64,000 bases of DNA, from IMG/VR virus record IMGVR_UViG_3300043411_001118, positions 1 through 64,000 of that record, one strand, 5' to 3'. The stretch is from a virus. A model generated the notes under the pieces. It saw nothing but the letters and a program-made list of their open reading frames with translations. It was not told where the DNA came from and did not search any database. Made by a program: the position numbers and the translations under genes. Of the stretch, positions 4,872 through 59,536 are shown piece by piece. Numbering within the stretch: the stretch's first letter is position 1; each line of letters opens with the position of its first letter.

Positions 4872-5225
4872 ATGAAAACTTACAAGCAAATTTTAAAAGA
4901 ATCAAAAACCTTACTTAGTGAAGATGGATTTCTCAACAGCTTAGAGAGTCTATTTGATCTCAAAAAGGCTAAGCAGAATGTGAAGGCTGGAGTTTCTTTA
5001 ACCAAGGAAATGATTCAAGCCGTCAAAAAACACGATCCAGAAGACAAGGCAACTATAAAAGATTATGAGAATGACATCTACGACTTAGAAGAAATTTTTC
5101 TTGCATTGGATAACGAAGAGGTAACAGAGGCAATTAAGATGTTTGATAAGTTAAGTGGTGATATCGCGGATAGGGTAATCGATCCGGTACAATATAAAAG
5201 ATCTTTTCGCAAAGATTTTTTCTAG
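4872..5225 (+). CDS. putative internal head protein
   Basis: N-terminus MKTYKQILKE resembles the T4 capsid-targeting sequence; in late operon. Confidence 0.55.
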   Translation: MKTYKQILKESKTLLSEDGFLNSLESLFDLKKAKQNVKAGVSLTKEMIQAVKKHDPEDKATIKDYENDIYDLEEIFLALDNEEVTEAIKMFDKLSGDIADRVIDPVQYKRSFRKDFF

Positions 5226-5271: not shown

Positions 5272-6291
5272 ATGAAAAAATACTCCACATTTCTTCTTGA
5301 AGCTCAACTCACACATTCCGATGCAGTTAAAATTCTTGGGCTAAAGCCCGGATACTCTCCAGACGATCTATCCTCGACCTATAAGCTAATGGCTAAACTT
5401 CACCATCCAGATAAAGGTGGGGATGTTGAGCAAATGAAACAGATCAATGCAGCTTATAATTTGCTGAAGGGATCGCCATCTGGAGATGATGAACAAAAAT
5501 CTTGGGACAAGTATCAGGCTAGAAAAAAACGGGATACCGAAAACTTAACTGATATCTTAGAAGTCTTTACTAAGAAATATCAACCAGGAATCTTTAAAGC
5601 CTATTTTGAAGACATCTACGGTATATCATTTAAGATGGAAACTTCATCACATATTGGAATGTATGGAGCTAATGTAAAATCGAAATACTTTAGTGAAGAT
5701 CGCGGAACTGTTATTGATATTGAATTCTATATGTCCGTGAATAGTACCAACGGAGATGCGAAATTAGGACCAGACGAACATTCTGGAGTTGGAATGACTA
5801 TATCCAGGACGATTTTTCATAACAGGAGACGGATCAAACTAGCTCAACAGAACTATTCGTTTGAATCGGACTATCGAGTGTTATCACAACCGGAGAAATT
5901 GTTTCCTAAAGACAAGATGGTTGATAAGTCTAAGAATGCAGGAAATTTGAAATTTAAGAAAGCTGATGCAATCTTAACAATCAAAAATGAGTTAGGTGCA
6001 AGGTGGGATGGAACCCAGTGGATGCGGATTCCCTTGAATGACAAATATACCTTGGTAATTTATCGATTGACTTCAATGGGTATTGGAACATGGGGAACTA
6101 GTGGGATCTACGAAGGGAACCGGCGCGTATCGAATGGACCGTTTCTATTACTAGTTGAGAATCAAAAAATTATCTACTGGTTTGTCGAACAGGTCAAGGG
6201 ACGATTACAGAAAGATATCGACTTAGCGCACATTCAAAAAGTTTTGATCGACATGGGCGCAGAATATAAAGAGTTGATCAAGAATCTTTAG
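5272..6291 (+). CDS. J-domain (DnaJ-like) protein with capsid-targeting-like N-terminus
   Basis: ILGL...YKLMAKLHHPDKGG...INAAYNLL with HPD motif; N-terminus MKKYSTFLLE. Confidence 0.85.
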   Translation: MKKYSTFLLEAQLTHSDAVKILGLKPGYSPDDLSSTYKLMAKLHHPDKGGDVEQMKQINAAYNLLKGSPSGDDEQKSWDKYQARKKRDTENLTDILEVFTKKYQPGIFKAYFEDIYGISFKMETSSHIGMYGANVKSKYFSEDRGTVIDIEFYMSVNSTNGDAKLGPDEHSGVGMTISRTIFHNRRRIKLAQQNYSFESDYRVLSQPEKLFPKDKMVDKSKNAGNLKFKKADAILTIKNELGARWDGTQWMRIPLNDKYTLVIYRLTSMGIGTWGTSGIYEGNRRVSNGPFLLLVENQKIIYWFVEQVKGRLQKDIDLAHIQKVLIDMGAEYKELIKNL

Positions 6292-7856: not shown

Positions 7857-8083
7857 AATTTCGTTCTCAATCGTCCTTGATGTATCCAAGCTACTACCTG
7901 TGAGGAATTTCTTATTATCTGATTGAACGGACCTCTAACCTCTACTTGAAATAACCAAGAATCATTCACGGAAACATGATTGATAACTTCTGGCATAGAT
8001 TTAATAACAGCCTCGTCAATCGTTTGGGAACATTGTTGGGATATCAACATTCCAGAAATTTTTATGTTGGTTTGATTATTCAT
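7853..8083 (-). CDS. hypothetical mini-protein ending QGRLRTKL
   Basis: array member. Confidence 0.65.
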   Translation of the reverse strand: MNNQTNIKISGMLISQQCSQTIDEAVIKSMPEVINHVSVNDSWLFQVEVRGPFNQIIRNSSQVVAWIHQGRLRTKL

Positions 8084-8089
8084 ACTATC

Positions 8090-8302
8090 CTAAAATCGTC
8101 CCTTGTATAACGCTCGACGAATGTTAAATTCTTGAGAACTTTCCATTCGAGTTTGAATTGCGGCTATTAAATCCGTTACATAGTAATTTGGCATTGGAAT
8201 AATTGTGGATGGCAAACTTTGATTCAAGGAACATTCCAAGGATTCTAATGTCCTTAAAATACAATCCACATCTCCATATTGCATTTTAATTTGTTTGTTC
8301 AT
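8090..8302 (-). CDS. hypothetical mini-protein ending KGRF
   Basis: array member. Confidence 0.65.
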   Translation of the reverse strand: MNKQIKMQYGDVDCILRTLESLECSLNQSLPSTIIPMPNYYVTDLIAAIQTRMESSQEFNIRRALYKGRF

Positions 8303-8303
8303 A

Positions 8304-8504
8304 CTATTCTAACCTCAATCGTCCCGAAACTAATTTTTGAAACCCCAACAAAATCGTCTCATACGCTACACATGTTATATGTGATGACCACGAAATTTTT
8401 GATAGTCCTGGAATATTTGAATCTAGTCTCCACCCGATCTTTTGTAATGTATAATCGATTTCTCCCATCTTATTAAATGCTATGTTTGCTTGATGCTCAT
8501 TCAT
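8304..8504 (-). CDS. hypothetical mini-protein ending SGRLRLE
   Basis: array member; ATG 8504 follows the stop of the upstream ORF. Confidence 0.6.
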   Translation of the reverse strand: MNEHQANIAFNKMGEIDYTLQKIGWRLDSNIPGLSKISWSSHITCVAYETILLGFQKLVSGRLRLE

Positions 8505-8505
8505 A

Positions 8506-8718
8506 TTAAAACTCCGGAAAAATACGAGAGTCTGAACCATGTGCGCCCACATTCCAGATTGTGGCGAGTAATTCCCAATAATAATGTTGTATCGCGTAGT
8601 TAGTAAAGTGTTGAAGGTTTTGGTCCAAGGACGATTCGATAGCTTTAGCTCTTTCAGTAGCTTCAATGGCTATAATAATTCTAGAGTTTCCATCCTCTGT
8701 CCAAAGTTTATTTTCCAT
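8506..8718 (-). CDS. hypothetical mini-protein
   Basis: array member. Confidence 0.6.
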   Translation of the reverse strand: MENKLWTEDGNSRIIIAIEATERAKAIESSLDQNLQHFTNYAIQHYYWELLATIWNVGAHGSDSRIFPEF

Positions 8719-11063: not shown

Positions 11064-11390
11064 TTATCGTCCTAATTCATTTAACGCTTGTCTCAGATTT
11101 TCTCTCGTACTGGATAGAATCCCGTTTGCACGATTGAACGCCTGAGTGATTGTATTCTCTGCCTTTCGGTTTGCTTCGGTGACGATTCGATTTGCTTCGG
11201 TTGTGGCCTCTGCGATCAACGTCTCACAACCTTTGCGGGTTTCTGTGATACTTGCCGATGGGTAAATGTCCGAGCGAACATCACGCTCGACCTCAATTAA
11301 TACCGACTCCAACCACGGTCCTAGATAACTCTCAAGTCCGAGTTTTTCGATTGATTCTTTTAAGATTTTAATTTCTTGTTCTTTAGTCAT
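11064..11390 (-). CDS. early hypothetical protein with coiled-coil C-terminus
   Basis: ATG 11390 with GGAGG RBS. Confidence 0.7.
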   Translation of the reverse strand: MTKEQEIKILKESIEKLGLESYLGPWLESVLIEVERDVRSDIYPSASITETRKGCETLIAEATTEANRIVTEANRKAENTITQAFNRANGILSSTRENLRQALNELGR

Positions 11391-11462
11391 TTTGTCCTCC
11401 ATCAAATGATTGATTCTTTCAACCACATGTATATGATGCCATAAATTATCCAAACTTGTCAA
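11391..11462 (-). promoter_or_regulatory. early promoter + stem-loop + RBS cassette
   Basis: TTGACA-18-CATCAT, then TGGTTGA-aagaa-TCAATCA, then GGAGG. Confidence 0.8.
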
Positions 11463-11594
11463 CTATTAAATCGTCCCTGCACCGCCCCACAACTACCTGT
11501 CATTATATGCACCACTTCCGTTCGTATATGGTGCCTATTTCGACAAGTGCTTGCTATTTTAAACACCATTTGATTTCACCTGATCGAGCTAATT

Positions 11595-11602
11595 AATAAA
11601 TA
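11595..11602 (+). promoter_or_regulatory. T4-type late promoter
   Basis: AATAAATA 5 nt before ATG 11608. Confidence 0.7.
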
Positions 11603-11607
11603 CCTGG

Positions 11608-12642
11608 ATGAAATTCTCCCAATTCTTAACTGAACTGCAAATAGCTAAGCTTCCAGGATTGGGCCTAGCAAGGCATAAAATGCCTCAGATTGCCGGGGAT
11701 AAGATTCAAGCATTCCTAGCCAAGCTTAGGCAAGACGGCATCTCAAGCCGAACTACGACCATTGAGGCATCAAGGCTGAAGCCGACTCAGAATGAATACA
11801 ATGTCGAGAAAGTCAAGGCATTGAAGCAACAGATCTTGAATCTGGACCTGAAGCCAAAACCATTAATCTGTTCTATTGATAACTACATTCTAGATGGTCA
11901 TCACACTTGGTTAGCTCGTAAAGAAATTAATCCACACTACCCAGTTCATGTTATCCAAGTGAACCTTCCTATTAAAGCATTGATTGATGTCGCATCTGAA
12001 TTCGAACACGCAAGACATAAGAATATTCATGAAACGTTTTTAAGTTTTTTGCGCGAAAAGAAAGAACCCGTTACTGATCCGAGACAGCCTTGGGAGAATC
12101 CAAAGGATGTTGAGAACACAGAGGCATTGAAGAAATATTATGATGAAATCATTTCAAAAATTCAAGAAGCTAAAAATGCATTCAATAGAATTTTGAAATT
12201 AGAAGGTCAAGGCGGGAAAGTTCTTTTGGGTTTGAAGCCGTTTGATAGTTTTATTGATAAGGTTGTCAAACGAGGAAAACCGGCAGATCAAATTCATGAT
12301 GTGCTTCGCGGAGCAATCTTGATGTCAACAAGTGAAGATGTTGATCGTGTTGTAAAGAGCATTGCTAAAAGATATCGAATTTACGAACACGAAGTAAAAG
12401 ATAAAGAACATACGAATGAGTTTGGTTATTATGGTTCACACCATTTTAAAATATTAGTTCCAACTAAAACTTCTGGTGGAGTTATTGCGGAAATTCAGAT
12501 CATGACAAAAAAACTTTGGTCATATAAATCTGTCGCACATGACATCTATACCAAGTGGAGAAGTTCAGAGGAAATTGATTCTGATATCCGAGCGCAGGAT
12601 GTTGCTTGGTCAAAAGAATTATTTCGGCTTGGTAATCGCTAG
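11608..12642 (+). CDS. ParB/Srx-domain + RelA/SpoT small alarmone synthetase-like fusion with capsid-targeting-like N-terminus
   Basis: LKPTQ...ILDGHHTW (ParB/Srx); KPFDSFIDK, HDVLRG, GYYGSHH, EIQIMT, AHDIY (SYNTH motifs); N-terminus MKFSQFLTE. Confidence 0.82.
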   Translation: MKFSQFLTELQIAKLPGLGLARHKMPQIAGDKIQAFLAKLRQDGISSRTTTIEASRLKPTQNEYNVEKVKALKQQILNLDLKPKPLICSIDNYILDGHHTWLARKEINPHYPVHVIQVNLPIKALIDVASEFEHARHKNIHETFLSFLREKKEPVTDPRQPWENPKDVENTEALKKYYDEIISKIQEAKNAFNRILKLEGQGGKVLLGLKPFDSFIDKVVKRGKPADQIHDVLRGAILMSTSEDVDRVVKSIAKRYRIYEHEVKDKEHTNEFGYYGSHHFKILVPTKTSGGVIAEIQIMTKKLWSYKSVAHDIYTKWRSSEEIDSDIRAQDVAWSKELFRLGNR

Positions 12643-12978
12643 GTATTTATTGCCATCTTTAATGACTTGATAATTTAGCTCAGATTCAATAATTTTAATG
12701 AATCGGTTGTAGACTCGAACCCGACTTTTCTCCATTGCAGAAAACCAAAAATATGGTGGGTAGTTTTCGAAAATATATTCACTTAGAATCTCGAATACAT
12801 TTTTTAGAACTCGAAATGGGTTTTTTGATTCGTTTGTTATTCGGGTTTGTGATAGTGAGTAACCCATGTCATCTGTCTTTCTTTCGTTGATCAGAGCAAA
12901 GGATATTTCCGAAGTTTTAGATACAATGAATTTATAAATGGAGCCATCAATCACAAATTGTTTCTCAAAATTATTCAT
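12619..12978 (-). CDS. hypothetical protein coupled to the hydrolase gene
   Basis: ATGA overlap with upstream gene; FSA...SRVRVYNR motif. Confidence 0.7.
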   Translation of the reverse strand: MNNFEKQFVIDGSIYKFIVSKTSEISFALINERKTDDMGYSLSQTRITNESKNPFRVLKNVFEILSEYIFENYPPYFWFSAMEKSRVRVYNRFIKIIESELNYQVIKDGNKYLAITKPK

Positions 12979-13406
12979 GTCATTTTCTGTCCAGAAAGAA
13001 ACTCATAATATTTTTTATATTCCTCAACCCTTACAAAATCTTTCGCGGTTAGATTCTTCAACCTAGAAATTTGCGCGTTATGCTTCAAGTCTGACATCTT
13101 AACAACTCTTGCCAGTGGATTTCTTTTTATCTTTTTGAAATACTCATCGGACGATCCAATACCCTTGGTTAATAGTTGTACAGCATTTATTAAGTTTTGG
13201 GGGATTCCCTTAACTAATAGGTCATTAGGAAATAGGGGAGTATCTTCTAAGATGTCGTGAAGATAGGCGACGATCTTTTCTTCTGTGGTATTGACACCAG
13301 CAACAACAGCTTCAATGTGTTTGATGTACGATTCGCCACCCAAATCTTTTTGATTGGCGTGGTATTTCAAAGCCAATTCTTTCGCAATTTCGAGTACCTT
13401 ATTCAC
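12975..13406 (-). CDS. HD-domain small alarmone hydrolase (Mesh1/SAH-like)
   Basis: HANQKDLGGESYIKH, LHDILEDT, VKMSDLKHN; GTG 13406 with GGAGG RBS. Confidence 0.88.
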   Translation of the reverse strand: MNKVLEIAKELALKYHANQKDLGGESYIKHIEAVVAGVNTTEEKIVAYLHDILEDTPLFPNDLLVKGIPQNLINAVQLLTKGIGSSDEYFKKIKRNPLARVVKMSDLKHNAQISRLKNLTAKDFVRVEEYKKYYEFLSGQKMT

Positions 13407-13425
13407 GTCTCTAACCTCCATAATC

Positions 13426-13454
13426 AATATACCAAACTTATCCAAATATGTCAA
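13426..13454 (-). promoter_or_regulatory. sigma70-type early promoter
   Basis: TTGACA-17-TATATT with TTTGGATAAGTTT spacer. Confidence 0.85.
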
Positions 13455-13756: not shown

Positions 13757-14170
13757 TTAGTGGTTTATGTTGTCTAAGAATGATTTGTCAAATATTGTTA
13801 CTGTTTTAATAGCAAGATCTCGACCCCAAATAACTTGGTTTTCTACCTTTTCAGATTTTTCTGCGTCCGATAGTCTGGCTGTGTTGTCAGTCACATCAAT
13901 ATAAACCAGCCCACCATGACCGGTTGTATCGTGATGTCCTGGTGGATTGTCGTTGTGATACCACCGGAAAACATTTTTTAAATTGGCCTGACCATAGTAA
14001 GCAATATCATCTTTATCACATGGAAAAAGTGATCTGTCTCGCACCCCAGAATTTTTAAATGATATCCATCCAGTCGATCCATTAAGTCCTCGACGACCAA
14101 TTTTAACAGTAAAGTTTGGTGGTAGTTTGTCCGGGGATGCTTCATTGAGAATTTCTTTGAACGATTTCAT
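13757..14170 (-). CDS. putative internal head protein
   Basis: N-terminus MKSFKEILNE; TAAATA (14177-14182) 6 nt before ATG. Confidence 0.65.
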   Translation of the reverse strand: MKSFKEILNEASPDKLPPNFTVKIGRRGLNGSTGWISFKNSGVRDRSLFPCDKDDIAYYGQANLKNVFRWYHNDNPPGHHDTTGHGGLVYIDVTDNTARLSDAEKSEKVENQVIWGRDLAIKTVTIFDKSFLDNINH

Positions 14171-14175
14171 AAAGC

Positions 14176-15511
14176 TTATTTAGATCCAACTAATAGTTTA
14201 GCATACTTTACAGCAGCATCTTCGTTATTGAAGATTTTAATGGTTTGTACTAGACCTCCAGATTCATCGTCCCTGAGAATAACAGAGTATTTTTCTGTAA
14301 CGGGATTAACTACAAATGTCGTTATCTCAAATTCTGCATTCGTAAATTTGTGAATCGTCCCTGGCAAATCTTTCATAATAATCCCCTACTTTTTGCTAAA
14401 CCAAACATTCTCGATCCCATTCTCATCCTACAGAATTCCTCAATTGTCTCACACCCGCTGTCCTGATATGCGCCCATAGTGAGACCGTATTCTTCAGCAA
14501 TGAATAATAACGCCGCCGTCTTCTCATCTCCACCGGCGCGTCCAAACAGATATTTTTGTCTGAGTATTCGGATCTCTCCCCGACCTCGTTTCCTCATTCC
14601 GAATGTATGGATGATCTGTTCAACTTGTTGTGTGTTCATTTTATTAATCCCCGATATCCAAGGTGCTGAAAGTTTCTTTTATCGGTACATGCTTGGGGCT
14701 ATTAAGTCCACCTTTTAGTATGAATGAGTTGGAGATCATTCCCCAATCAAAAAGTCCAGTATTAAATATCGCCCTAGTGATCGCTATTGTATCCTGATAG
14801 GATGTTGACTTCTCCCTAACCAACTTCGACTCGAAATCTCTTATGGAATATTTTGCAGATTCACCCTTGGATATTAATTCCTGCAAAATATTTTGAATTT
14901 CCTCCGCAAGCAAATCAATATCGACGGACTCATTTTTCGGTGAATCCGGAATCATATAATGTGGATATGGTGCGTAAAAATATAACATTTCGTCTCCTAT
15001 TAAATGTGTCTACCTTGTAATCTCAATAACATTTCGATCTGAGTGTTTGTGAATCCATATTTGGAAGCACGAAGTTTAAAAACCTCTGTCTTACTGTATT
15101 CCCTCACATGAAATTTTTTCACATCGTAAGCATGGCCCGGATAACTATCCTGGAAAATTTTAAAAAGTTGATCGGCCTTACTTCTCCCGCCACAAGCCTT
15201 CTCAAAATTTTCTGTTTCTTTCTGTTCGTTGTACATGATGTTTCCTACTTTTTTAAAAATTCAGCGTCAAATTCTCTAACTGCTTTCGCTCTTTCCTCAG
15301 CAAAACTCTTGGCCCCATTCAGAACCGATTTTGCCAACTCAGAATATTCCCCGTAGGCAACAGCAAGTTCAAGAACAAATTTTTTGTTTGTCTTAACTTC
15401 ATTTTGAACGGATTCGAAAATCCGACCAACCTTTTCGCCGTTTCCATTAACAGCAGCTTCCCACATTCTGTGAATCGCCAACTGAACCAATCTTTTATTT
15501 CCTTTCATCAT
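14176..15511 (-). other. early operon of five hypothetical ORFs (14176..14376, 14373..14639, 14644..14988, 15000..15236, 15245..15511)
   Basis: packed minus-strand ORFs downstream of the promoter at 15580. Confidence 0.65.
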
Positions 15512-15580
15512 ATCTCCTATCAAACTGGTTGAACTCTCAACCACAGATATATGATGCCACACATTATCCAAATGTGTCAA
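15512..15580 (-). promoter_or_regulatory. early promoter + stem-loop + RBS cassette
   Basis: TTGACA-18-CATCAT, TGGTTGA-gagt-TCAACCA, AGGAG. Confidence 0.82.
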
Positions 15581-54904: not shown

Positions 54905-55474
54905 CTATTTATTTGGTTTTGGGCGGCGTGTGAGTTTTAAGAAATCGTCAAATGTCTTCTTTTTGTATTTTTCTTGTGCAGATTTTGAAACGGCTGGATC
55001 ATCTCCATCATGACCCGTTCCGGCAATGGCTCCGGTCCCGACTGCATTAGCCGCTGCATCCTCAGTGAATGACTTGATCCATTCCTCAAATTCTTTTCTT
55101 CTTTCCTGAACCATTTCAAACCAATCCGTAACAGACTCAACTAATAGATCTGGATCTCGATCATAGTCTTTATTATTCTGTTCTTTTAATAGGAACAATG
55201 CAGCCGCGAAGGACGCGATTCTGGTTTTTCCGAATGGAAGTTTTTCTAAGATTCTTTTTAAATTGAATACCAATCTATCAAATAGTGTGTATGCATTTTT
55301 TTCTTCTGGAGTTTTTAAATCTTTCCCTTTCTTTAAAACCTTCCCATCCTTATCGATAATTCCCAATTCGAATGCTTTAGTTTTTTCAAATGGTGTGGTC
55401 AGACGCTTCAGTGTTGAATACAACATCAACAAATCAATCGCAACATTTTCTGTTAGAAAACATTTTGTTTTCAT
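54905..55474 (-). CDS. conserved T4-like late protein
   Basis: LKRLTTPFEKTKAFELGIIDKDG, RLVFNLKR, AAALFLLKE. Confidence 0.75.
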   Translation of the reverse strand: MKTKCFLTENVAIDLLMLYSTLKRLTTPFEKTKAFELGIIDKDGKVLKKGKDLKTPEEKNAYTLFDRLVFNLKRILEKLPFGKTRIASFAAALFLLKEQNNKDYDRDPDLLVESVTDWFEMVQERRKEFEEWIKSFTEDAAANAVGTGAIAGTGHDGDDPAVSKSAQEKYKKKTFDDFLKLTRRPKPNK

Positions 55475-57207: not shown

Positions 57208-57966
57208 TTATTGAATGGAGCTAATTAGCTTTCTGGCACTAACAATTTCAAAAAAGGTTCTACCTATGATAGAATTCAACTTATCCAGTCTGAACAGGGT
57301 ATCTCCCCAGATTGGTCTATAATGTAGACAGTTCTCCGATGGAACAGCTAACAATTGACCTGTCGTTCTCATCGTCCCTCGACCATCTCCCATCCGTAAG
57401 GGAGAATCGTCCTGGTCCAATTGCATCAATACGTCCATCAATTCGATTGGAGTCTTACTCATCGACATCGATATTTCTGGAATTTTTATATCATCTCGAT
57501 TAGAAATGACTGTTGACGATGACCTTGATAACTCTTTAACAGCCGATGAATATACACCATCTATATTACTGCCATCTAACACAAATGCTTTCTCGGAATT
57601 CATCACCAAAACATTTCCTGTGATCTCTTGTTCCTTTAAAATCTCAATTGACTCTTCTGGAGTTGATGCATATAAAGCTTTTCTGACTCTCAGACCCTCC
57701 GGTGAATTGTATTTTCTTTCTTCTCGATTCGCCCGTCTAATATCGGATATCTCATTTTCGATATCGATTCTTGGACAAACCAAAACAACTAAACCGTGTT
57801 CGTTTAATCCTTCGGAGAATCGACTGACCTCATCCCAAAGGAACAAACGTTCGATATCATTTCGAAAACTCTTTCTGATTCTGATCCTTGGCTTATAATT
57901 ACAGTCTCGATTCTTCGCCGCGACAAATCCAACACCATTAAAATATTTGCAAACTATAGTTGACAT
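57208..57966 (-). CDS. Ntn-hydrolase-fold peptidase/amidase
   Basis: AKNRD, EGLNEHGL, TTGQ motifs. Confidence 0.7.
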   Translation of the reverse strand: MSTIVCKYFNGVGFVAAKNRDCNYKPRIRIRKSFRNDIERLFLWDEVSRFSEGLNEHGLVVLVCPRIDIENEISDIRRANREERKYNSPEGLRVRKALYASTPEESIEILKEQEITGNVLVMNSEKAFVLDGSNIDGVYSSAVKELSRSSSTVISNRDDIKIPEISMSMSKTPIELMDVLMQLDQDDSPLRMGDGRGTMRTTGQLLAVPSENCLHYRPIWGDTLFRLDKLNSIIGRTFFEIVSARKLISSIQ

Positions 57967-58742
57967 TATCCAAACCTTTTCTGATAAGCATTAAAAAGCG
58001 AGAACTGTTTTTTCACCATAGATGCCCAAGATTTTGCTCGATTTTGGAGTGAGTGATCTCCCTCGATGAAAGTTGCGTAATATGCATTAATCAAATATGA
58101 AACGACATCTGCTGAGTATGTGTCATCGGGAAGATTGTATTTTTTAATCGCCGCCTGTGATACATCCCAATATGCATTTATCCGCTTATCAATGTCATCA
58201 GGAAGAATGAGTCGCGGAACATCATCCACCAAATAATCGATAAACCCATAAAATTTAGTAACTGGAACACCACTAAATTTCAGAACTATCCCCTGTACCC
58301 ACGGCTGAAATTCTATGTCTTGAAAAATATATTTAGCACCATCCAACCCACGTCCACCTGTCTCATAATTAAGAGTTTTCCAAGGCGTTAGTTTTTGTCT
58401 GGAGTGTATGAATTCGTGGATAAATGTTGATAGTAGGGTTTGTGCAGTTCTGGGCTTATTCCATATCGAATCGTGAACCGTAGGAACTCCCAAATAAATT
58501 TCATCTGGTGTCCTGAATTCTCCGTTAATTGATCCCGATATACGAAACACAACCTCCATTTGCGGCCCAAATTGTTTCGTTTCGTTTGAAAGTTGATCGG
58601 CCATTGATACCAGATCAACATTACCCTTCGCCCCCATGTCACGAATATTTTTTGAAATAATTTCTTTGGACGATTGATAGAGTTTGTAAAACTTATCAAT
58701 GAACGATTCATTCAGAAACGATTTAAAGGAACGCCCTGACAT
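57966..58742 (-). CDS. zincin-like metalloprotease with capsid-targeting-like N-terminus
   Basis: HEFIHSRQ and downstream E in QDIEFQPW; N-terminus RSFKSFLNE. Confidence 0.7.
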   Translation of the reverse strand: MSGRSFKSFLNESFIDKFYKLYQSSKEIISKNIRDMGAKGNVDLVSMADQLSNETKQFGPQMEVVFRISGSINGEFRTPDEIYLGVPTVHDSIWNKPRTAQTLLSTFIHEFIHSRQKLTPWKTLNYETGGRGLDGAKYIFQDIEFQPWVQGIVLKFSGVPVTKFYGFIDYLVDDVPRLILPDDIDKRINAYWDVSQAAIKKYNLPDDTYSADVVSYLINAYYATFIEGDHSLQNRAKSWASMVKKQFSLFNAYQKRFG

Positions 58743-59536
58743 TATCCAAACCTTCTTCGATATATCTGAAACAATTTAAATTCTTTTTTAATAACCTTGA
58801 TCCAAGACGTTGCTCGACTTTTTAACTCATCATTACCAATTTGGAATGTCGTATTATATACATCTATTAAATTCGAAACTGCGTTTGTTGTTGATGGATC
58901 TTTAGGAATATTAAATTTTTGTAAGATTTTTGAAGTAGCGACAACAATTTCAAATTGTCGTTGACTATCTGGACCCAAAAAAGAAAATTTCATTTCTGGA
59001 ACTTCGGTTATTAGTGAATCGACAAACGCATTAAAATTTCCTTCGGGAACATCTATAAATCTTAAAATGGTTCCCTGTATCCACGGTTGAAATTCCAAAT
59101 CTTGGAACATATATTTGGCTTGTTTTAGTGAAGATCTGCCACGTTGAATATAGGATGATTTAAAATATTCCGCTGAAATTTCTTGCCGAGAATGAATGAA
59201 CTCATGAATTATGGTCGAAATCAATTTGGTTATTATATGTTCTTTTCTCCAAACAGGATCAACAAACATCGGAACATATAAATTTATTTTTTTATCGTCT
59301 GAAAAGTATACTCCGGAGATTGAGATGTTATTTTTTCTATTTTGTATAAACTCAATTTCAATCTTATCTCCAAACCTAGAAAATTCCAAAGAAATTTTCC
59401 TCTCAATTTTAGGAATGGCATCAGAAATTTTGTTGTTTGCTACTAGCTCATCATTCAAAATTTTTGTGATATTCTGGTAAACAGTATAGAACTTGTCCAC
59501 GAACGATTCATTTAGGAATGTCTTGAATGTTCGCAC
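58742..59536 (-). CDS. zincin-like metalloprotease with capsid-targeting-like N-terminus, paralog of 57966..58742
   Basis: HEFIHSRQ, QDLEFQPW; N-terminus MRTFKTFLNE; TAAATA 59546-59551. Confidence 0.7.
   Translation of the reverse strand: MRTFKTFLNESFVDKFYTVYQNITKILNDELVANNKISDAIPKIERKISLEFSRFGDKIEIEFIQNRKNNISISGVYFSDDKKINLYVPMFVDPVWRKEHIITKLISTIIHEFIHSRQEISAEYFKSSYIQRGRSSLKQAKYMFQDLEFQPWIQGTILRFIDVPEGNFNAFVDSLITEVPEMKFSFLGPDSQRQFEIVVATSKILQKFNIPKDPSTTNAVSNLIDVYNTTFQIGNDELKSRATSWIKVIKKEFKLFQIYRRRFG

Follow-up and report, generated by a model that had tools for sequence, protein, structure and literature searches.

A tagged RelA/SpoT-type synthetase facing early Aph1-like and DUF6934-like genes in a T4-superfamily phage: candidates for a virion-delivered pyrophosphokinase and its antidotes

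The present analysis concerns a three-gene locus within positions 1-64,000 of the IMG/VR virus record IMGVR_UViG_3300043411_001118 (this whole stretch of 64,000 nucleotides is called the window in the following; the record comprises 103.8 kb and is estimated to be 57% complete). The first gene, 11608-12642 on the plus strand, reads as an open reading frame (ORF) of 344 aa, comprising a short N-terminal tag resembling the capsid-targeting sequence of T4 internal proteins, a ParB/Srx-like module and a RelA/SpoT-type alarmone synthetase domain. Facing it on the minus strand lie a gene for an HD phosphohydrolase (12975-13454, 159 aa as longest ORF) and one for a 119-aa protein (12619-12978), the stop codon of the former and the start codon of the latter sharing the sequence ATGA. 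The synthetase gene and the 119-aa gene converge, and their 3' ends overlap by 24 nt with no terminator-like site between them. These reading frames, their convergence and the coupling of the minus-strand pair agree with an initial annotation made from the sequence, which had furthermore taken the gene at 11608 for the lone plus-strand gene of its region; it is one of very few there, not the sole one, and its neighbours are nearly all on the minus strand.

Domain composition of the three genes

The synthetase domain covers residues 151-344 (12058-12639, plus strand). It matches the Pfam family PF04607 (RelA_SpoT) over residues 210-314 with 42.8 bits (cut-off 27) and E 7.5e-11, and its AF2 model (pLDDT 93.9) retrieves SAS1/RelQ, RelP, CapRel and Tas1 in Foldseek, with E 8e-9 to 1e-7 and TM 0.58-0.64 for SAS1/RelQ and RelP. 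At the level of such models, the fold search does not separate (p)ppApp-, (p)ppGpp- and tRNA-specific synthetases; moreover, a profile of the synthetase family searched against the PDB gave no Tas1 sequence at E up to 1. Profile and structural model thus agree with the annotated domain as well as with its peculiarity, the missing Arg of the first motif. This motif reads G208-L-K-P-F-D-S-F-I-D-K218, with G208 in place of the usual Arg, a trait shared by the entire family. Of the ATP-donor motif R-x-K-x3-S-x3-K-x3-R, the protein thus lacks the first Arg and keeps K210, S214, K218 and R222. Likewise family-wide, the usual EIQIRT reads EIQIMT here, with Met in place of Arg. Across 23 diverged sequences, K210, S214, K218, R222, D231, R234, Y274, H279, E295 and Q297 are invariant or nearly so, including the invariant Mg-binding D231, the G-loop Tyr Y274 and the E295-x-Q297 pair. 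From these motifs the domain is read as an active but atypical enzyme; alternatively, it could be inactive.

Relatives of the synthetase differ in what precedes the catalytic domain. Stand-alone forms have 207-264 aa, a 361-aa relative (P0007) carries an HD_4 hydrolase domain between tag and synthetase, and a 326-aa relative encoded on a 345-kb contig (P0013) carries a NIF-type phosphatase domain at the same place, both with cleavage-type motifs in the linker. In a complete 166-kb phage (L019), two ORFs of 155 and 90 aa (7878-8566) together make up the synthetase homologue, its hydrolase and 119-aa-family neighbours being intact; this split could reflect a frameshift or a sequencing error. Neither a megablast of the region against phages nor a single-sequence search for related loci gave matches, and the paper on phage PhiM9 contains nothing on RelA/SpoT proteins.

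The N-terminal module (residues ~10-142, 11635-12033, plus strand) had been annotated as a ParB/Srx domain. This holds weakly, at the superfamily level of sequence profiles: the module matches phrog_2859 (6.5e-27), ParBc_2 with E 0.041, which is below the cut-off (6 of 16 relatives match, best 1.9e-5), and, also weakly, the free serine kinase 5x0j (E 0.013), and it contains DGHHT at residues 96-100, where most relatives have DG[HS]HR. Ackermannviridae have a conserved 149-aa protein to which residues 1-143 are homologous (~32% identity); one such homologue, LIMEstone1 ORF101, is annotated as 'confirmed structural protein', and this annotation of a distant relative gives the only experimental hint of a virion location. 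A full fusion of the ParB-like module to the synthetase was found solely in this record among 5.8 billion clustered proteins, and in L006 and in Paraglaciecola phage GD1 module and synthetase are separate, adjoining genes. Word-index searches with the ParB-like domain or the 119-aa protein returned the query itself or nothing. Elsewhere, the module has other partners: in L020-L025 and L027 (2365-3618) it is fused to an N-terminal cytidylyltransferase/NMNAT-like domain (GRxNPPTxGH) starting with MKKLNEIL, and in L051 (2425-4170) it lies within a 581-aa protein whose N-terminus resembles a ClpP/S49-type protease.

The hydrolase had been called Mesh1-like, an assignment that was rejected. Residues 4-138 of 143 align to residues 7-142 of 149 of the '(p)ppApp hydrolase' PDB 7SMG over 135 residues (E 7.5e-27, 97 bits), that is, to Aph1; other HD hydrolases reach at most 22 bits, and none named Mesh1 is among the matches listed at E up to 1. 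The protein further matches phrog_990 (7e-41). Aph1 provides enzymatic immunity to Apk2, a MuF-fused (p)ppApp synthetase, and cleaves (p)ppApp, not (p)ppGpp, a preference set by D24 and R119; its signature comprises D24, R96, D116, R119, K133 and Y134 (PMC10083569). In the protein studied here D24, R119 and Y134 are kept, and R96, D116 and K133 are replaced by K, Q and E, respectively, so both specificity positions proven by mutagenesis are retained. Although the longest ORF extends to TTG 13454, the hydrolase probably starts at GTG 13406 (12975-13406, minus strand, 143 aa), because this codon stands behind a GGAGG sequence and a promoter lies within the TTG-started ORF.

The 119-aa protein, encoded by the second gene of the operon, scores 15.7 bits against DUF6934 (PF22028; cut-off 27), and relatives linked to it by profile exceed the cut-off (P0016 with 32.9 and P0019 with 162.6 bits). 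A profile of its family collects 1,291 representatives at E up to 1e-3, its neighbours in the Atlas are DUF6934 clusters, mostly viral, and tblastn of the protein against phages gave no matches. The AF2 model (pLDDT 83.9) has the topology 3 strands, helix, strand, helix, 2 strands and matches the C-terminal two-thirds of GNAT acetyltransferases (Foldseek E ~0.03; VIA Z 6-7.9, top rows mostly GNATs); no recognisable acetyl-CoA motif is seen in the sequence by eye. With such middling scores, the model suggests a divergent DUF6934 protein with a truncated GNAT-like fold. Several other DUF6934-like proteins (P0019, P0022, P0024, P0026 and P0028) contain 3-5 such domains in tandem within 430-1950 aa.

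Gene linkage was followed over 17 loci, namely 14 IMG/VR loci, phage GD1 and the window, all three by local ORF clustering, and phage phiN3. A homologue of the 119-aa protein directly adjoins the synthetase gene in 11 of them and is its most constant neighbour. The protein is no mere passenger but, compared with the hydrolase, the better candidate for a direct antidote. The convergent, overlapping arrangement of the window recurs in L010. The hydrolase is tightly linked to the synthetase in 6 of the 17 loci, which lends indirect support to the initial annotation, and is fused to it in P0007: it lies within two genes in the window, GD1, L008, L013 and L019, and ~2 kb off in L014. The order synthetase, small protein, hydrolase is found in L019, L008 and the window.

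Tags, cleavage sites and promoter classes

The phage belongs to the T4 superfamily. Outside the window, its record contains a module in T4 order with large terminase, sheath, tube, portal, Peptidase_S77 prohead protease, scaffold and major capsid protein. The genome also encodes a homologue of gp55, the late sigma factor of T4 (tblastn E 2e-21). The prohead protease is of gp21 type (Peptidase_S77 140 bits; phrog_207), the scaffold protein holds 20 [LI]-x-E motifs, and the major capsid protein contains MLGE|A at residue 63, the position at which gp23 of T4 is processed.

In T4, the first 10 residues suffice for head targeting, with residues 4 and 7 being important for targeting and residues 8 and 10 for processing, and gp21 cleaves after L/I-x-E (PMC9026906). 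According to the T4 record, ipII and ipIII begin with MKTYQEFIAE and ipI with MKTFKEF. The synthetase precursor begins with MKFSQFLTE (residues 1-9, 11608-11634, plus strand), ending in a gp21-type L-x-E site, and the resemblance to the capsid-targeting sequence of ipII and ipIII seen in the initial annotation is borne out. At least seven unrelated proteins of this genome start with such a tag, the synthetase included: MKTYKQILKE at 4872-5225 (plus), MKKYSTFLLE at 5272-6291 (plus; 339 aa, with a J-domain and its HPD motif directly behind the tag), MKSFKEILNE at 13757-14170 (minus; 137 aa, no family match), MKTKCFLTE at 54905-55474 (minus), MSGRSFKSFLNE at 57966-58742 (minus) and MRTFKTFLNE at 58742-59536 (minus). 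A strict pattern derived from T4 matched 3 N-termini and 0 of 32,474 internal positions; hence, a chance origin of the shared tag is unlikely. By a crude pattern, tag-like N-termini are moreover found in 15 of 24 synthetase relatives versus 39 of 370 control ORFs (p 9e-9), and several further relatives match by eye.

A second tag-like segment had been noted at the domain junction (IHE-TFLSFLRE, residues 140-150). The segment is present, and it reads instead as a gp21-type site that directly precedes the catalytic domain and is both conserved and accessible. The interdomain linker (12025-12057, plus strand) contains the gp21-type motifs IHE (residues 140-142) and LRE (residues 148-150), the latter 9 residues ahead of a family-conserved QPW, and has no secondary structure in the AF2 model. 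Within the closest subclade, 14 of 16 members have a hydrophobic-x-E motif 6-10 residues ahead of QPW, whatever precedes it, and the alignment of the synthetase family has the consensus L-x-E-x9-Q-x-W before the catalytic domain. By eye, cleavage-type sites also follow the HD domain of P0007 and the NIF phosphatase domain of P0013. A Peptidase_S77 protease is encoded in 11 of 11 synthetase-bearing phage records tested (10 others and this one).

Regarding transcription, the late-promoter motif that had been attributed to the synthetase gene is found as TTAATAAATA (11593-11602, plus strand), with TAAATA at 11597-11602, 5 nt before the ATG, and no Shine-Dalgarno sequence precedes this start. The exact sequence TATAAATA is rare (3 copies), the motif at the synthetase gene being of the looser TAAATA type. 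Motifs of this type also stand 27-49 nt upstream of the sheath, tube, portal, scaffold and capsid genes. TAAATA is rarer than estimated from base composition (66 copies versus ~180 under assumed base frequencies), and 12 of the 66 copies lie 5-6 nt before a start codon, compared to ~0.1 expected. These are located at 1558, 6887, 11597, 14182, 20631, 30139, 61240 and 63793 of the window and at 69197, 83624, 84790 and 87567 of G000 (coordinates so labelled refer to parts of the same virus record outside the window); they include the tagged gene starting at 14170, and none of the 12 genes has room for a Shine-Dalgarno sequence. In the geometry of T4 late promoters, TATAAATA spans -13 to -6. Applied to the synthetase gene, this geometry would place the transcription start on the A of ATG 11608 and, thus, give a leaderless mRNA. 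Judged by position, the start-proximal copies of TAAATA may mark a class of leaderless late mRNAs or some other initiation signal.

The promoter reported ahead of the hydrolase operon, TTGACA-17-TATATT, was likewise found (13426-13454, minus strand) and lies inside the TTG-started ORF. It is of the sigma-70 type with an extended -10 TG, has 11 of 12 matches and is one of the two best sigma-70 matches in 18 kb. It belongs to a family of the form TTGACA-NN-TTTGGAT-...-(C/T)AT(C/A)(A/T)T with nine copies, all on the minus strand, versus 0.1 expected (11052, 11462, 13454, 13736, 15580, 18467, 36853, 44875 and G000 89226). TTG-started ORFs beginning at such a -35 box (11064-11462, 15245-15580 and 12975-13454) are probably too long. 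Only this top-scoring, conserved family is informative, not the overall number of sigma-70-like sites, which between 6.2 and 24.5 kb is no higher than in shuffles. The proposed division into a late synthetase and early hydrolase and 119-aa genes recurs in relatives, albeit in small numbers: of 12 loci, 6 have TAAATA in the 90 nt ahead of the synthetase gene, compared to 51 of 346 other ORFs (p 0.005), and a sigma-70 match of at least 10/12 precedes the 119-aa gene or its operon in 4 of 10 cases versus 21 of 346 (p 0.003), the latter signal holding even where this gene is co-directional with the synthetase gene.

Two further observations concern the surroundings of these genes. The dispersed word AATCGTCCCTG has a copy at 11469-11479, ~130 nt upstream of the synthetase gene, and another copy precedes the J-domain gene with a tag at 5272 by 46 nt. 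In the structural module, the portal ORF (G000 96132-99260, minus strand, 1042 aa) matches portal proteins in two stretches with an HNH endonuclease match between them (residues 458-543), an insert that looks, from its sequence, like an intein-like or inserted homing element.

Proposed delivery of a kinase by the virion, and alternatives

The explanation that we prefer, and to which in its full form we would give about an even chance, is that of a virion-delivered kinase followed by early antidotes. A 39.7-kDa precursor would be made late in infection from the TAAATA-type promoter and would likely be loaded into the prohead core by its N-terminal tag. Cuts by the gp21-type protease behind LTE9 and, within the linker, behind IHE142 and/or LRE150 would follow, yielding in the head a ParB/Srx-like protein of ~15 kDa and a RelA/SpoT-type pyrophosphokinase of ~22.5 kDa, both predicted to be basic (pI 9-9.7) and both to be injected along with the DNA. 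Once in a new host, the kinase would use ATP to pyrophosphorylate an adenosine substrate at its 3'-OH, with ATP or ADP as favoured substrate, giving (p)ppApp, and the CCA end of tRNA in second place; in both cases, nucleotide pools or translation would be struck at entry. Within minutes, the sigma-70-type early promoter would yield two antidotes: the Aph1-like hydrolase, stripping the 3'-pyrophosphate, and the 119-aa DUF6934 protein, which, judging from linkage and analogy, probably binds and blocks the kinase. Both antidotes would also keep newly made late kinase harmless, and the two transcription units, which converge and overlap, may in addition interfere with each other. As to the product, (p)ppApp appears to us about an even call by analogy, favoured by the Aph1-type hydrolase and by the three-gene systems with binder and hydrolase known for the (pp)pApp makers FaRel and Apk2; 3'-pyrophosphorylated tRNA-CCA is distinctly less probable, and (p)ppGpp less probable again.

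Several points weigh against this explanation. The synthetase tag is one residue shorter than that of T4, while three other proteins of the genome match the 10-residue frame exactly, and the ParB-like homologue of Ackermannviridae cannot show cleavage, as its N-terminus lacks Glu. The whole synthetase family lacks the Arg equivalent to R64 of FaRel2, a residue with a crucial role in ATP binding (PMC11782079), so that activity is not assured, and the TM of the model to Tas1 (6ox6_A, 0.59) is below those to SAS1/RelQ (0.64) and CapRel (0.63). Only four of the six Aph1 signature positions are kept or conservatively replaced in the hydrolase, and no likeness of the 119-aa protein to Tis1 or IapK was found in sequence or fold searches. 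Furthermore, most relatives have the synthetase and 119-aa genes adjoining and co-directional, as in an ordinary toxin-antitoxin pair, and the promoter comparisons derive from simple consensus scans.

Of the alternatives, a counter-defence role of the early operon survives best, while still being improbable. In that case the hydrolase and the 119-aa protein would act against host immunity by toxic small alarmone synthetases (toxSAS) that make (pp)pApp or pyrophosphorylate tRNA, or against a Tas1-like attack, the adjoining synthetase being an unrelated effector. Such a role would be in line with the promiscuous neutralisation of toxSAS products by small alarmone hydrolase (SAH) enzymes (PMC11782079), with the protection that Aph1 affords against non-cognate Tas1 (PMC10083569), with early expression of the operon and with the 10 of 17 synthetase loci that have no nearby hydrolase. 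It accounts poorly, however, for the gene linkage: with the hydrolase at most two genes from the synthetase in five loci and at a distance of ~2 kb in one more, with a fusion of the two in P0007, and with the 119-aa family adjoining the synthetase in 11 of 17, the association is far beyond chance in genomes of 150-230 kb.

Somewhat less probable still is an unpackaged toxin-antitoxin or exclusion module acting in the producing cell, for instance in late host shut-off or in competition with a co-infecting phage, whose N-terminus would be no capsid address. Phage toxSAS with antitoxins do exist, as exemplified by PhRel and PhRel2 (PMC7229694, PMC11782079), and in most relatives the co-directional neighbourhood of synthetase and 119-aa gene would suit such a module. 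Against it stand the tag itself, which is common to unrelated proteins of the genome and matches T4 nearly letter for letter, the gp21-type protease in all tested carriers, a cleavage-type site kept before the catalytic domain irrespective of the upstream fusion, and the annotation of a homologue of the ParB-like module as virion protein. The least probable alternative, a dead or repurposed synthetase domain serving as a nucleotide- or tRNA-binding internal protein or as a decoy, finds support in G208, which replaces the ATP-site Arg, and in the family-wide change of this residue and the Arg of EIQIRT, the only two that are changed. Against it, the remaining residues of the donor site (K, S, K, R) are invariant or nearly so in 23 diverged sequences, as are the Asp that binds Mg, the Tyr of the G-loop and E-x-Q, and both the linkage to a product hydrolase and the fusions to HD or NIF phosphatase domains fit an active enzyme.

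Generalizing the preferred explanation of virion delivery, lytic T4-superfamily phages would carry a family of pyrophosphokinases that are loaded into the head by the tag, freed by the prohead protease and injected, giving a pulse of (p)ppApp or a tRNA block before phage expression that is ended by early antidotes, including DUF6934 as a new, GNAT-like class of inhibitors widespread in phages; for this wider claim we would stay tentative, somewhat short of an even chance. If it is true, an alarmone-type enzyme would join Alt and IPI among the few injected T4-like effectors, DUF6934 with its >1,000 representative sequences, mostly viral, would obtain a first function, and a toxin/antidote pair would owe its separation in time to promoter class instead of protein stability. 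Neither the T4 tag nor toxSAS, Aph1 or three-gene immunity is new in itself. The novelty lies in combining them in lytic-type T4-superfamily phages, in the carrier consisting of tag and ParB-like module, in the DUF6934 partner and in the split by promoter class; a literature search of incomplete coverage yielded no description of a packaged RelA/SpoT enzyme in T4-like phages.

Comparison with known systems

At the level of the fold, the tRNA-pyrophosphorylating toxSAS CapRel, FaRel2 and PhRel2 are comparable to the synthetase described here (TM 0.63 for CapRel), and, in principle, a hydrolase that removes 3'-pyrophosphate from adenosine could restore a pyrophosphorylated CCA end of tRNA as well. 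Unlike in these enzymes, no pseudo-Zn-finger antitoxin domain was seen and no N-terminal tRNA-binding extension was recognised. The FaRel toxSAS with its SAH (ATfaRel) and Tis1-like (AT2faRel) antitoxins follows the three-gene logic that is proposed here, with a (pp)pApp-type synthetase, a hydrolysing antidote and a binding antidote (PMC7229694, PMC11782079), but it forms a bacterial toxin-antitoxin operon without a delivery module, and its antitoxin domains (Tis1-like, pseudo-Zn-finger) were not found here.

With T4 internal proteins and Alt, the synthetase precursor has in common an N-terminal tag about 10 residues long (aromatic near position 4, hydrophobic at position 7, L/I-x-E at positions 8-10), as well as basic predicted products, a gene scattered with other tagged genes among early genes, and a gp21-type protease in the genome. 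It differs from them in its cargo, an alarmone-synthetase-type enzyme plus a ParB-like domain, in the 9-residue length of the tag, in a second, internal processing site that is predicted in the linker and in the linked, dedicated genes for putative antidotes.

Among known systems, MuF-Apk2/IapK/Aph1 of temperate phages comes closest (PMC10083569, PMC12226406). Here as there, a RelA/SpoT-type pyrophosphokinase is C-terminal to a carrier module that is, or in the present case would be, head-associated, and, as in apk2-iapK-aph1 (PMC12226406), the synthetase is followed by a small protein and then by an Aph1-family HD hydrolase, the hydrolase being sometimes absent and the small protein nearly always present. 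The authors of that work raise co-injection with the phage DNA as a possibility (PMC10083569, PMC12226406) and pose capsid carriage and action at injection as an open question (PMC10083569). For this question of a capsid-carried toxin, the tagged synthetase family affords a cleaner test than MuF-Apk2, as the targeting and processing rules of T4 are known, the predicted mature N-termini are explicit and cultured carriers exist, namely Sinorhizobium phages phiM12 and phiN3, Desulfovibrio phage 7757, Variovorax phage V45v66 and Paraglaciecola phage GD1. Differences from MuF-Apk2 lie in the carrier, which is a T4-type tag with a ParB/Srx-like domain and neither PAAR nor MuF, in the phage, a lytic-type T4-superfamily myovirus, in a synthetase not detectably closer to Tas1 than to other SAS, and in a small protein that is DUF6934- and GNAT-like without detectable likeness to Tis1 or IapK; in addition, the putative antidote genes are inverted and have an early promoter of their own. 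Hence, the arrangement is not unprecedented but a variant of the Apk2/IapK/Aph1 and FaRel three-gene systems, in which the delivery module and the putative binder differ from those of MuF-Apk2/IapK/Aph1.

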